Notes under the pieces: generated by a model
The model's database searches: none
The model's input: only the letters and a program-made list of their open reading frames with translations
What the model was told of the DNA's origin: nothing
Origin: a virus
Taxonomy: Duplodnaviria; Heunggongvirae; Uroviricota; Caudoviricetes
DNA: 14,246 bases
Strand: one strand, 5' to 3'
IMG/VR virus record: IMGVR_UViG_2690316231_000009
Location: 1-14,246 of that record
Program-made: the position numbers and the translations under genes
Shown here: positions 521 through 9,740 of the stretch, piece after piece
Layout of the letters: each line of letters starts with the position of its first letter
Numbering within the stretch: position 1 is the stretch's first letter

Positions 521-616
521 AGAAATGAAAAAAGGCCACGCAGTTGCGCAGCCTGATAAACCCTGGTTAAAATCCACACGATAACAACACAACAATATCA
601 GTATCTCATGCTATTG

Positions 617-641
617 CCCGAACCCATTCGGGCATTTTTTA
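617..641 (+). terminator. Candidate rho-independent terminator, plus strand
   Basis: GCCCGAA (617-623) / TTCGGGC (628-634) 7-bp stem, 4-nt loop, followed by ATTTTTT (635-641). No plus-strand ORF lies upstream, so the terminated transcript is unknown. Confidence 0.45.
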
Positions 642-646
642 CCCAT

Positions 647-673
647 AAAAAATGCCCCTCCGGAGAGGGGCAT
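647..673 (-). terminator. Candidate rho-independent terminator, minus strand, downstream of the TerB-like gene and small hydrophobic ORF
   Basis: ATGCCCCTC (652-660) / GAGGGGCAT (665-673) 9-bp stem with CGGA loop; A6 at 647-652 gives a U6 tract immediately 3' of the hairpin on the minus-strand transcript. Confidence 0.55.
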
Positions 674-838
674 GTTTGCATGCACATTCTTTTTCTTGCA
701 TGGTGCCGGGTGCCTCCCGGTGAATTCAGTATCAGCACCTGAATCCGCGATTATCCCATATACCTGGTTGCTGATCGCCCCTCCGCACAGGGGGATTCAC
801 CATGCAGAAGTGTTTTTAATAAACAGCAAATAAAAAAA

Positions 839-2717: not shown

Positions 2718-2744
2718 AAATAAAAAGCCTTCAGGACTGAAGGC
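2718..2744 (-). terminator. Rho-independent terminator of the small regulator gene
   Basis: GCCTTCA (2727-2733) / TGAAGGC (2738-2744) 7-bp stem with GGAC loop, overlapping the stop codon of the 2731..2928 ORF; followed on the minus strand by TTTTTATTT (RC of 2718-2726). Confidence 0.6.
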
Positions 2745-2928
2745 GTCTGTAACAACCGCACTGATAGTCTGCCAGACCCGCCATAACAAGCTGGGTCAGT
2801 ATTAACTGGCAGCGTTCGCGTGAAAGGTAAGTATTCTGCGCAATCTCCCCGACTGTCGCCGGTTCGGTAACGCTTAATTCATCAAACACAACTCTGGCGG
2901 TTTCTGTCATATCCTGCTGTTTCAGCAT
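2731..2928 (-). CDS. Small winged-helix regulator, PapI/FaeA-like (65 aa)
   Basis: ATG at 2928; own intrinsic terminator at the 3' end. MLKQQDMTETARVVFDELSVTEPATVGEIAQNTYLSRERCQLILTQLVMAGLADYQCGCYRRLQS has the size and helix pattern of PapI/FaeA-type fimbrial regulators. The family assignment is a structural guess from memory. Confidence 0.45.
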   Translation of the reverse strand: MLKQQDMTETARVVFDELSVTEPATVGEIAQNTYLSRERCQLILTQLVMAGLADYQCGCYRRLQS

Positions 2929-3053
2929 GTCTTTTTACCCTTTCCGGTTAACGTGACATACCAATAACTCTTGTCTAAAAAGCCAGCAAGATAAAAAGCC
3001 AGTATTCACGACCACCAGCGTGTTTACTGTACTGCACCAGGTTTACAGGTACA

Positions 3054-3137
3054 AAAAAACCGCTCAGCGGCGGGTTTAAGTTGTGTGGCGAAGTAACCAC
3101 TCTTAACAGCATATTTTATTTTTTACGATTGTAAACG
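3054..3137 (-). promoter_or_regulatory. Candidate promoter followed by a weak hairpin plus U7 terminator (possible Q-dependent late promoter / tR'-like element)
   Basis: Minus strand reads TTTACA (RC of 3132-3137), 16-nt spacer, TATGCT (RC of 3110-3115). About 40 nt downstream, CCGC-TGA-GCGG (RC of 3062-3072) is followed by TTTTTTT (RC of 3054-3060). The stem is only 4 bp, so the terminator call is weak. Confidence 0.3.
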
Positions 3138-3200
3138 GTTGATTATTCATCTCCAATAAAAATAATTGTGTGGGTATGCCCTTAACAATGGATAAGAAAC

Positions 3201-3647
3201 ATGAATAAAATGACTGTACTATTACTTAGCGCAACTATCATTTCAGGTTGTACTTCTTCCGTACCATTGATAAAGAAAACTCAATCAGGAAAACCTGAGG
3301 GGGTTTATCAAAATACGACAAAAGATAAAGTCAAAGATGCCCTTGTGAATTACTGCAATAGTAGAGGGTTGATAATTTACAACGCGGATAACAGCAGTGT
3401 TATATGTGGTAAAGAACTGGAAGGCGGCTCTGCTGTTTTTGGACAAATGTTAATCGGCAATGCCTATTCAACAACCCCGGTATCAAAAGTCAGATTTACT
3501 ATCGCTCAAGTTAATAACGATACAAAAGTGTGGGCCGATATGTGGATGGAAACTCAAATGGCAATGGGGCAAGTACAACAAATGTCTATAACAGACAACG
3601 CAAGCAAAAACACTATCCAACAACGTCTTGATGAATTAAAACCTTAA
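3201..3647 (+). CDS. Lipoprotein of unknown function (148 aa), AT-rich moron convergent with Q
   Basis: N-terminus MNKMTVLLLSATIISGCTSS has a positively charged n-region, hydrophobic core and lipobox ISGC. Markedly lower GC than surrounding phage genes. Opposite strand to the lytic operon. Confidence 0.7.
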   Translation: MNKMTVLLLSATIISGCTSSVPLIKKTQSGKPEGVYQNTTKDKVKDALVNYCNSRGLIIYNADNSSVICGKELEGGSAVFGQMLIGNAYSTTPVSKVRFTIAQVNNDTKVWADMWMETQMAMGQVQQMSITDNASKNTIQQRLDELKP

Positions 3648-3648
3648 A

Positions 3649-3686
3649 TAAATTAAATAAAATGGGGAGAATAAATCGACTCCCCA
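3649..3686 (-). terminator. Rho-independent terminator just downstream of Q, lying between the convergent Q and lipoprotein genes
   Basis: TGGGGAG (3663-3669) / CTCCCCA (3680-3686) 7-bp stem with 10-nt loop; on the minus strand it is followed by TTTTATTTAATTTA (RC of 3649-3662). Confidence 0.5.
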
Positions 3687-3727
3687 CACATTAAACTGAT
3701 TCAATTACCCCCTCAATAAGAGGTCTT

Positions 3728-4093
3728 CTAACGATCCATCTCTAGCTCAATTTCTAACATCATTAACATGCCATCAACTACACCTTCAGCTTTTTGCAAT
3801 AAACGCCCAACCCAGCAATCAGAACGCCCATGTTTACGGGCAAGCGCCATAAAAGTCATACCACCTACATAATAATCCACTAATAAATCGTGCAAATCGC
3901 TGTTGTTCTTTTTCAGGCGAGCCATGCATCCACAAATGATCATCGCGTCATCGTCACAACATTGCGGGCGGGATTTTACTTTTGAAGGGATTAGTCCTTT
4001 AAATCCTGCAGCAATAGACGACCAGGTGACATCCTCGTGATTATTTGCCACCCATGCCCCCCAACGTTCAAGAACCATTTGAATATCACGCAT
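3728..4093 (-). CDS. quuD: Late-gene antiterminator Q, QuuD-like
   Basis: Starting at ATG 4093-4091 (GGAG SD 7 nt upstream) the protein reads [75 protein letters not shown]..., which I recognise as very close to the DLP12 prophage antiterminator QuuD (YbcQ). The track start at 4108 is a TTG extension. Confidence 0.8.
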
Positions 4094-8583: not shown

Positions 8584-9740
8584 TTGCGCCCCCTTACCTC
8601 TGAAGGGTTCAGCGACAAATTTATGAGACTGGCCAGCGCCGAAGCATCATTAATATAGTCATATAAGCTAACAGCCAGCGGAGATTCGGCTTTTGCCAAC
8701 ATAGGATAAAGCTGCTGCAGCCAGACCTGATGAATTGATGAAATGTAGGAACAGAGAACGCTGGCGTTATGTGCAACGTCGCTCGGTACAGCGGGCTTTG
8801 AAAGCTGTTTCTCCATCTGGTTAAAGGCATTTATGTATGCCTCTTTGAACCGGGCAGCACGTTTACCCGTGAAACCCATAGCAAGAAACGCAAAACCGTC
8901 TCGTGTGATTTGATAGCAAGGGAGCTTGCGTGTACCACCGTTCGGTTGATTTACCGAAATCGATGTCTCCGCAAAATTGCGGGCACAAAACTCTGGGGAA
9001 CAATCCAGAGTGCGGATCTTTTTCAGCACATCGTCGTGACGCTTGGAGAAGAAGTTGGCAACAGCCAAAGAAGTGGTAACGGCCTGGCCGTTGTCAATGG
9101 TGATTTCAGGTTGAGTGAGGGCTGGGATCGTAGCCATGATGGCAGCCTCCGTTGACAGTGAAAAACTTCCACCACCGGAAACGCCAATTTCACTGGTGGT
9201 GAACTGGACGGGGTTGGCGTAACCGGCGTCAACGGAGACCGGCGCACCTTTCGGTGCCCCCGCCCAGCCCACCATAATCTGGATGTGAGCAAATGCGGAC
9301 GATAAAAAAGACGCTGGCGCGTCATACATCGCCGTTGACAATTTCAGGACGCCAATCCCGGCACCCGCTTTATAAGGTGCCTGAGCAGTGTAACGTCCCG
9401 GAATTGCAGAATCAATATGCTGGTGGTCCTTCACACTCAACAAAATCACGCCTGAATTTCCACAAAGGACTAAAGCACTCATGCGGGTAGTCTTTGCGAA
9501 GATAGATAACGCGCTGTGTTTCTGGCTCCCAACGAATAACATGGACATAAAGCCCTCTTCCGTCACGAAACCAGCGGTTAAGTTCCTGCACAACTCGCCC
9601 CCCACAGTCAGGTAAAGTTCTCTGTGGTTACTTACAGCCAGGTGATTTGGTAATCTGCATTCATGCCGTAACAACAGGTGTTCAGCGACGCTGACCACCA
9701 GCTGTTGCGACAAACGGTTATTTGCCGTTAAACTATTCAT
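8580..9740 (-). CDS. Rha-family phage regulatory protein with an about 200-aa N-terminal extension of unknown function; strong internal start at 9137
   Basis: 386-aa uninterrupted ORF. Residues about 220-310 (LAVANFFSKRHDDVLKKIRTLDCSPEFCARNFAETSISVNQPNGGTRKLPCYQITRDGFAFLAMGFTGKRAARFKEAYINAFNQME) form a Phage_pRha domain. ATG 9740 overlaps the CII-like stop (ATGA). An internal ATG at 9137 with GGAGG 8 nt upstream would give a 185-aa stand-alone Rha protein (MATIPALTQPEITIDNGQAV...). Confidence 0.6.
   Translation of the reverse strand: MNSLTANNRLSQQLVVSVAEHLLLRHECRLPNHLAVSNHRELYLTVGGELCRNLTAGFVTEEGFMSMLFVGSQKHSALSIFAKTTRMSALVLCGNSGVILLSVKDHQHIDSAIPGRYTAQAPYKAGAGIGVLKLSTAMYDAPASFLSSAFAHIQIMVGWAGAPKGAPVSVDAGYANPVQFTTSEIGVSGGGSFSLSTEAAIMATIPALTQPEITIDNGQAVTTSLAVANFFSKRHDDVLKKIRTLDCSPEFCARNFAETSISVNQPNGGTRKLPCYQITRDGFAFLAMGFTGKRAARFKEAYINAFNQMEKQLSKPAVPSDVAHNASVLCSYISSIHQVWLQQLYPMLAKAESPLAVSLYDYINDASALASLINLSLNPSEVRGRK

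Follow-up and report, generated by a model that had tools for sequence, protein, structure and literature searches.

The pR'-qut-tR' region of phage lambda (6S RNA) combines a constitutive promoter with an early terminator and with a Q site that is placed within the promoter. Its Q protein belongs to the family PF03589, the leader comprises 194 nt, and the promoter adjoins the Q gene. Phage 21 encodes a Q of the unrelated family PF06530 and its pR' begins 7 nt after the Q gene. The pR', QBE, SDPE, and terminator of this phage have been described (Guo 1991; Yin 2019; OL657228.1). The site of Q21 is a direct repeat (ATTGAGCA, AATGAGCA) at -27 to -12, between the -35 and the -10 hexamer, and the leader terminator is annotated at +3 to +50 (OL657228.1). 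Within the same Q family, the start of the pR' of Sp5, a Sakai Stx2a prophage of the 933W type in which this promoter is the late promoter driving stx, has been mapped by dRNA-seq (Sy et al. 2020, PMC7547250). The 3' end of the Sp5 transcript is found 258 nt from the start, and RNase E cuts between GU and AUU at +173. This 258-nt pR'-tR' transcript is the precursor of StxS, and its 3' 74 nt constitute the regulatory RNA (PMC7547250). In the cryptic DLP12 prophage of E. coli K-12 the order of the elements is quuD, nmpC, promoter, and essD. According to PMC7918800, which refers to Rueggeberg et al. 2013 for this point, the DLP12 lysis cassette is controlled by a Q-type antiterminator.

Here, these systems are compared with a prophage that is known here from its sequence, namely from a window of 14,246 nucleotides, by which we mean the whole stretch of DNA analysed. 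Judged by this comparison, the segment from 3135 to 3053 on the minus strand very probably represents the late promoter pR' of a lambdoid prophage, together with its leader and first terminator, and would be the target of Q. The segment is not homologous to the pR' of lambda, but the logic would be the same. The surrounding region is the late-regulatory region of an Stx-phage-type lambdoid prophage that does not contain stx.

The Q gene and the promoter segment

The Q antiterminator of the window consists of 121 aa (3728-4093, minus strand; PF06530, E = 1.8e-51) and belongs to the 933W/QuuD subtype of the Q21 family. It is 79% identical to the Q of Sp5 and 85% identical to QuuD of DLP12. The candidate pR' therefore has a cognate Q of the same subtype upstream on the same strand. 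The match to the Q21 structure 6P18 is distant (E = 7.5e-9). Q21 is 41 aa longer and contains a loop inside the DNA-binding motif, and the match of the window's Q stops just before this loop. The window and phage 21 have in common the Q family, a Q site inside the promoter (a candidate site in the window), and a leader terminator ending at about +50. The alignment with the pR' of phage 21, which the preliminary description had suggested as a check, does not reveal significant sequence similarity, and the direct repeat of the Q21 site is not present in the window. It is the layout alone that is shared.

The same description had proposed a promoter of the type TTTACA-N16-TATGCT, followed by a short hairpin and U7, on the minus strand, and these elements are found exactly where it had put them. 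The -35 hexamer TTTACA can be read directly at 3135-3130, and the -10 hexamer TATGCT follows at 3113-3108 after a spacer of 16 nt. The promoter is of the sigma-70 type with workable spacing and matches the consensus at 9 of 12 positions in a pattern scan. By itself, such a match is at chance level, the scan reporting 19 promoter-like sites in the window compared with 17.0 +/- 3.9 in shuffled sequences. The corresponding numbers for terminator-like sites are 35 and 15.2 +/- 4.5, and the candidate hairpin with its U7 is unremarkable if judged on consensus alone. The feature is taken as real because of homology, conservation, and uniqueness, and not because of its consensus score. The 21-nt leader core TAAGAGTGGTTACTTCGCCAC (3105-3085) and the palindrome TTTAC-N4-GTAAA (3135-3122) are each present as a single copy in the window, with expected numbers of 0 and 0.01, respectively. 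The promoter segment has matches in 381 phage records.

From the -35 hexamer to the U run (about +50), 67 of 84 aligned positions (80%) are identical to the pR' of Sp5. At the end of its Q gene, Sp5 reads TTTACG-N16-TATCAT-GATAAGAGTGGTTACATTGCCAC, followed further on by the hairpin and U7. In the current Sakai record we assigned the mapped Sp5 start to position 1846 of the retrieved locus (L004:1846), an A seven nucleotides after the -10 hexamer, because the start, the +258 end, and the +173 cut all fit this one position: the 3' end fits the T run ending at L004:2103, and the RNase E site GTATT fits L004:2017-2021. Transferred by homology from this position, transcription in the window is predicted to start at A3101, the second-to-last A of TAAGAG, and to give a leader of about 49 nt. 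The -10 hexamer would thus be located at -12 to -7, the -35 hexamer at -34 to -29, and the U run would end at +49. With the pR' of Sp5, Sp15, and 933W, the source of the StxS RNA, the window shares the homologous Q, the -35 with its palindrome, the -10, the start region, the leader hairpin, and the hairpin with U7. The promoter segment is also 83.5% identical to the DLP12 site upstream of essD, so that homology to known pR' regions, on which the earlier proposal had been made dependent, exists with both Sp5 and DLP12.

The DLP12 promoter reads TTTACGTACGTAAA...TATGCT...TAAGAGTGGTTAC and is located 2.86 kb past quuD and about 170 nt before essD. The published sigma-E start of DLP12 was considered as the pR' start and was rejected. 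Deduced from the primers of the -121/+650 fragment (PMC7918800 supplement), it falls at about L126:4374, which is about 355 nt upstream of the pR'-type position L126:4730. The essD operon of DLP12 seems to have two promoters.

The leader is highly conserved from -4 to +17. It is predicted by folding to begin with a hairpin, GUGGU-UACUUC-GCCAC, at +2 to +17 (3085-3100, minus strand), whose conservation arises partly by construction because the search pattern included it. The early transcribed region did not yield a convincing sigma-dependent pause element, the best candidate being TACTTC (+8 to +13), which is a poor match and does not have the final T of the TACATT of Sp5. A search of Rfam did not return any RNA family over 3050-3140. 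A reading frame of 45 aa on the minus strand (2975-3112), whose counterpart in phage PhiR40_1 (L125:4089-4202) is annotated as hypothetical protein, starts within the -10 hexamer and thus upstream of the predicted start, and crosses the leader and the terminator. It is probably a spurious call and an annotation artefact.

The hairpin and U7 of the proximal terminator are located at 3053-3071 (minus strand), with the 3' end of the RNA expected at about +47 to +49. The stem GCCGC/GCGGU (3071-3067 and 3063-3059) consists of five pairs including one G-U, and is followed by seven T (3059-3053). Folding yields about -5 kcal/mol, which is weak, and the stem represents a weak variant, GCGG-U7 versus GCGGG-U6/7. 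Among relatives, each leader was folded separately, since indels between divergent leaders preclude formal covariation counting. A hairpin and a U run ending at +47 to +61 are present in 59 of 60 distinct leaders, and the stems are different in six lineages. Based on these leaders and on the annotated terminator of phage 21, a terminated leader of about 49 nt is a reasonable prediction. Alternatively, the promoter could be real and homologous to pR' while the hairpin with U7 is not the operative tR' but a minor or leaky stop, a pause, or an RNA-stability element, which we regard as possible but rather unlikely. The transcript produced without Q would then mostly continue through the first gene after the leader, which encodes a winged-helix-like protein of 65 aa (2731-2928, minus strand; PHROG 331, a homologue of phiP27 L23), to the next strong terminator. 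In the scan, this terminator is found at 2717-2744 on the minus strand, with a 7-pair stem GCCUUCA/UGAAGGC and U5 (2744-2727). Such a reading would be in agreement with the stem of just 4-5 pairs and with the situation in Sp5, where the homologous and stronger hairpin with U7 occupies about +25 to +49 but RNA made in vivo without Q has its 3' end at +258 (PMC7547250). The retention of a hairpin and U run in nearly all leaders, with stems that changed, and the terminator of phage 21 that ends at +50 speak against it. In addition, by our own reasoning, an RNA as short as about 50 nt can easily escape standard RNA-seq or a probe directed against the 3' part of StxS. Given the weak stem and the read-through of the homologous Sp5 hairpin in vivo, probably only part of the transcripts end at +49, and the hairpin with U7 is probably a first, leaky terminator rather than the only tR'. 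From the earlier proposal of this hairpin as tR', the terminator at +49 itself is retained, but not its role as the sole one.

The approximately 150-nt segment in which Sp5 encodes the functional 74-nt StxS RNA and the terminator at +258 is not present in the window. Of the terminator GCCAGCC...GGCTGGC-U6, only the 3' half GCTGGCTTTTT remains. The window was considered as a source of StxS, which was rejected because the functional 3' part is absent.

Pairing of -35 palindromes with Q subtypes

The -35 hexamer of the window is overlapped by the palindrome TTTACAATCGTAAA (3122-3135, minus strand; -34 to -21, centre at about -27.5), which is the candidate Q-binding element. It was compared in three samples of relatives. 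Sample (a) comprises 120 viral contigs selected by the leader core. In all of the approximately 108 loci with Q-containing upstream DNA, a PF06530-type Q is found upstream on the same strand at a distance of 5-3013 nt, and the promoter adjoins Q only where Q is of the 144-aa 933W type or of one of a few further types. Sample (b) comprises 80 loci that were picked by the Q protein irrespective of the promoter, all with a Q at least 84% identical to that of the window. Each of the 64 loci with at least 3.3 kb of downstream DNA contains TTTAC-N4-GTAAA once, on the same strand and 486-3217 nt beyond Q, and in every locus a -10 hexamer follows at a spacing of 16 nt. In total, only 67 such palindromes are present in the 702 kb of this sample. 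Sample (c) comprises ten loci selected by the leader core with one genome per species, from Kosakonia, Trabulsiella, Citrobacter, Phytobacter, Tatumella, and Shigella and from two metagenome-bin contigs labelled Chitinophagaceae and Erysipelotrichaceae, and shows the same pattern as the other two.

All Q subtypes share the sequence between the -10 and about +50, whereas the -35 region differs. The -10 hexamer reads TAnnnT in almost all promoter classes, the exceptions being CAGTAT in one Q cluster and two single loci. Six classes of palindromes were distinguished (TTTACRATCGTAAA, GCGTACGC, GCGGTCCGC, TGTTATAACA, TGGAATTCCA, and TGTAATTACA), which are perfect or near-perfect, have their centres at -27.5 or -28, and precede an A tract. 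The palindrome TTTAC(G/A)(A/T)(T/A)CGTAAA pairs with the Qs of 933W, DLP12 (QuuD), and the window. The Q proteins are near-invariant at residues 1-55 and differ class by class at residues ~76-100. Pfam marks a weak helix-turn-helix at these residues in the Q of phiP27, and the first helix of the Q21 DNA-binding motif aligns to them. Each palindrome class pairs with its own version of this region, and the classes of palindrome and Q agree in every locus examined (about 108, 64, and 8 Q-bearing loci of the 120, 80, and 10 retrieved). In Kosakonia oryziphila (L209), a new Q subtype with the recognition region TLRVMATKLGISHNHVSVRLQ is found together with a new palindrome, TGTAATTACA, 23 nt after Q.

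The agreement between palindrome and Q could partly reflect shared ancestry of the adjoining DNA. Three observations point to function rather than mere linkage. The DNA directly upstream of the palindrome varies among the loci and comprises at least 30 unrelated inserts, the palindrome stays with Q where the leader or the insert differs, as in 22 loci with a different leader, and phage Ayreon, a negative control with a lambda-type Q (PF03589), shares the terminator and the downstream DNA only but not the promoter. The 22 loci (within L136-L165, e.g. L136:7256-7390) encode Qs that are 92-94% identical to that of the window and have the same palindrome and a TATGAT -10, followed by the unrelated leader ACCCAGAGTGTCAGTTTGTATAAAAACTCTG..., in which TATAAA at about +13 to +18 strongly resembles a -10 hexamer. 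Their gap between Q and promoter contains a convergent gene whose translation looks like a putative Blc-type lipocalin lipoprotein.

Taken from these comparisons, the palindrome is a strong candidate for the Q-binding element and represents the best-supported inference on the site of Q, for which we consider the chances somewhat better than even. A palindromic Q site would be without structural precedent, since Q21 binds a direct repeat, and it would occupy -34 to -21 instead of the -27 to -12 of the Q21 site. Within the collection of papers searched, we did not find any report on a Q-binding element of 933W-type Qs. With about equal weight for and against, the comparative data may be extended to the reading that Qs of the 933W/QuuD branch recognise a subtype-specific palindrome at about -27.5, that Q and its promoter form a split module, and that the gap between them is a preferred landing site for cargo. 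Recognition of subtype-specific palindromes would imply a symmetric Q dimer, unlike the tandem arrangement of Q21 on its direct repeat.

The promoter might also be an ordinary constitutive one that serves the 65-aa gene and its neighbours while Q acts at another site. The 592 nt that separate it from Q and that include a terminator and a convergent gene, as well as the missing clear sigma-dependent pause element, would fit such a promoter. This is improbable given that the palindrome at the -35 changes together with the Q subtype over about 180 loci, with unrelated inserts and even with a different leader, that no other conserved element is found from Q to the lysis genes in PhiR40_1, and that the homologous Sp5 promoter is the late promoter driving stx (PMC7547250). 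Slightly less probable still is an inactive relic in a defective prophage, i.e. a homologue of pR' that is no longer used, which might be suspected from one central mismatch of the palindrome compared with Sp5 (A for G) and from the loss of one G from the terminator stem. The same variants are, however, present in 185 complete E. coli genomes and in the deposited complete phage genomes PhiR40_1 and PhiR55_1, and the form TTTACAATCGTAAA is the commonest partner of those Qs that are more than 90% identical to the Q of the window.

The insert between Q and the promoter

In Sp5 the -35 hexamer overlaps the last codons of the 144-aa Q. In the window, Q ends at residue 121 and 590 nt of cargo (3138-3727) take the place of the 72 nt in which Sp5 encodes its 23-aa Q tail, placing the -35 hexamer 592 nt past the Q stop codon. 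The homology to Sp5 breaks off at this stop codon and restarts at the G before TTTACA (GTTTAC), from which we conclude that the lipoprotein cassette lies between Q and its target promoter. The terminator and the convergent lipoprotein gene that the preliminary description had reported after Q are both confirmed. According to scan and folding, the intrinsic terminator (GGGGAGU...UUCUCCCC, then AUUUUAUUU) is located at 3655-3685 on the minus strand, i.e. the strand of Q, at the left edge of the insert. Its hairpin spans 3685-3666 and is followed by a T-rich tail. It is unidirectional because the opposite strand does not have a T run after the hairpin. The convergent gene (3201-3647, plus strand) encodes a predicted lipoprotein of 148 aa with the lipobox ISGC and the signal MNKMTVLLLSATIISG ending before the C. 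The protein is a member of PHROG 3152 (E = 3e-104), a family that carries no assigned function, and searches of Pfam, NCBIfam, and PADLOC did not return a match. A candidate promoter of this gene, TTGATT-N16-AATAAT (3139-3166, plus strand), is based on consensus only (9/12) and is placed back to back with pR'. The alignment with Sp5 hinted at a remnant of the Q 3' end at 3140-3200, which was rejected as a chance match since 25 to 122 of 500 shuffles match the local scores.

Of 5426 complete E. coli genomes, 185 contain the identical insert. So does phage PhiR40_1, whose complete genome shares the order of Q, lipoprotein gene, and promoter at 97.6% identity. The layout is also the same as in DLP12, where nmpC, another convergent gene for an envelope protein, is located between quuD and the promoter. 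The cargo is a porin gene and IS5 in DLP12 but a small lipoprotein gene in the window. The cassette is thus a member of the known 933W/QuuD-type late cassettes and deviates from the classical arrangement, in which the promoter is found within about 100 nt of the Q stop, in this distance only. The suggestion that the lipoprotein gene separates Q from its target promoter is supported by the 80% identity to the mapped pR' of Sp5 and by the matching Q subtype. While the displacement is real, it is not unusual as the earlier description had implied: all 64 of the 64 relatives in sample (b), DLP12, and phiP27 are alike in this respect, and a promoter displaced from Q is the normal layout for the Q subtype of the window.

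The least probable of the alternatives is a pR' at the classical position, within the 42 nt that separate the Q stop from the terminator at 3685-3666, which would then be tR' and give a transcript of about 35 nt. In its favour, this position adjoins Q, a good terminator follows, and a weak match TTGAGG-N17-TAATGT (7/12) can be read after the Q stop. However, this match does not reach the threshold of the scan and is missing from its output, its start would fall at the foot of the hairpin without space for a pause or a loading site, and the segment 3727-3686 is part of the insert, shows no homology to Sp5, DLP12, and other relatives, and does not contain a palindrome of the Q-matched class.

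In the relatives (L005-L124), the gap between Q and pR' contains at least 30 unrelated classes of cargo, and in about 25 of 30 the orientation of the largest gene is convergent to that of Q. Ten gap proteins were sampled, and five of them match PADLOC models of defence or candidate defence systems, namely PDC-S20 (KAP NTPase type), NsnA, PDC-M53A, HEC-04, and PDC-M68A.

The late region and its presumed control

Upstream of Q, a DUF968 gene is found on the minus strand (5106-4111). Further away, in the early part of the prophage, a C4 antisense RNA (9192-9279) and isrK (9304-9380) adjoin each other on the minus strand, with a weak match to the c4 target beyond them (region 9192-9393). This region resembles the antisense-controlled antirepressor/immunity regions of the P1 or Gifsy type. 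Downstream of the candidate pR', the 65-aa gene is followed on the minus strand by a gene for an AraC-family regulator (1883-2596), three tRNA genes (1854-1607), and a TerB-family gene. The regulator is most similar to YdeO and GadX, well below the cut-offs of these families. It is located between pR' and the tRNA trio, a position that is occupied by a DNA methylase gene in other phages. In the late region, upstream of an esterase-like gene, Rfam identifies the small RNA STnc100 (641-831, minus strand, 143 bits) and directly beside it AgvB, an anti-GcvB sponge RNA (579-640, plus strand, 96.5 bits). The identical E. coli locus L003 extends further than the window and carries, in this extension and on the same strand, a DUF6645 gene, a holin, and a lysozyme. 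Like the window, the Sp5-type Stx phages have tRNA genes and cargo downstream of the promoter, and then the lysis genes. In PhiR40_1 a small gene, a methylase gene, and S-R-Rz are found within about 1.7 kb downstream of the promoter. In DLP12 the holin gene follows the promoter directly, without tRNA or regulator genes.

By homology to the mapped Sp5 start, the sigma-70 RNA polymerase would start at about A3101. Without Q, some transcripts would be expected to stop at the hairpin with U7 (about +49) and others later, for example at the 2744-2727 terminator. After induction, Q would bind TTTACAATCGTAAA over the -35 and load onto the polymerase near the promoter. The Q-modified, terminator-resistant polymerase would then read through the regulator gene, the tRNA genes, and the cargo into the lysis and structural genes. 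The steps of loading and antitermination are deduced from the comparative data and the known mechanism of Q21. As Q is a diffusible protein, its distance of 590 nt from the promoter is no bar to such a regulation. The position of the cassette upstream of pR' keeps it outside the late transcript.

For annotators, the assignment of pR' provides the most probable start of late transcription at this locus. Papers on Stx prophages often report that a pR'/qut site could not be found with Qs other than that of 933W (e.g. PMC9729726, PMC6266700). A possible rule for locating it would be to search up to about 3 kb downstream of Q for a -35 palindrome of the Q-matched class, and to check further that a TAnnnT -10 follows and that the leader TAAGAGTGGTTAC is present, which is the case in most but not all relatives. 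Such a rule could predict the pairing of Qs and promoters among co-resident prophages, which is of relevance to the expression of toxin. The gap between Q and pR' appears suitable for finding cargo and defence genes of prophages. The displacement is ordinary for this Q subtype, and follow-up may be merited by the match between palindrome and Q classes and by the gap as a site of cargo. If Q and its promoter indeed form a split module, function and not adjacency would keep them together, and the gap would host cargo expressed in the lysogen, such as envelope proteins and anti-phage defence genes.
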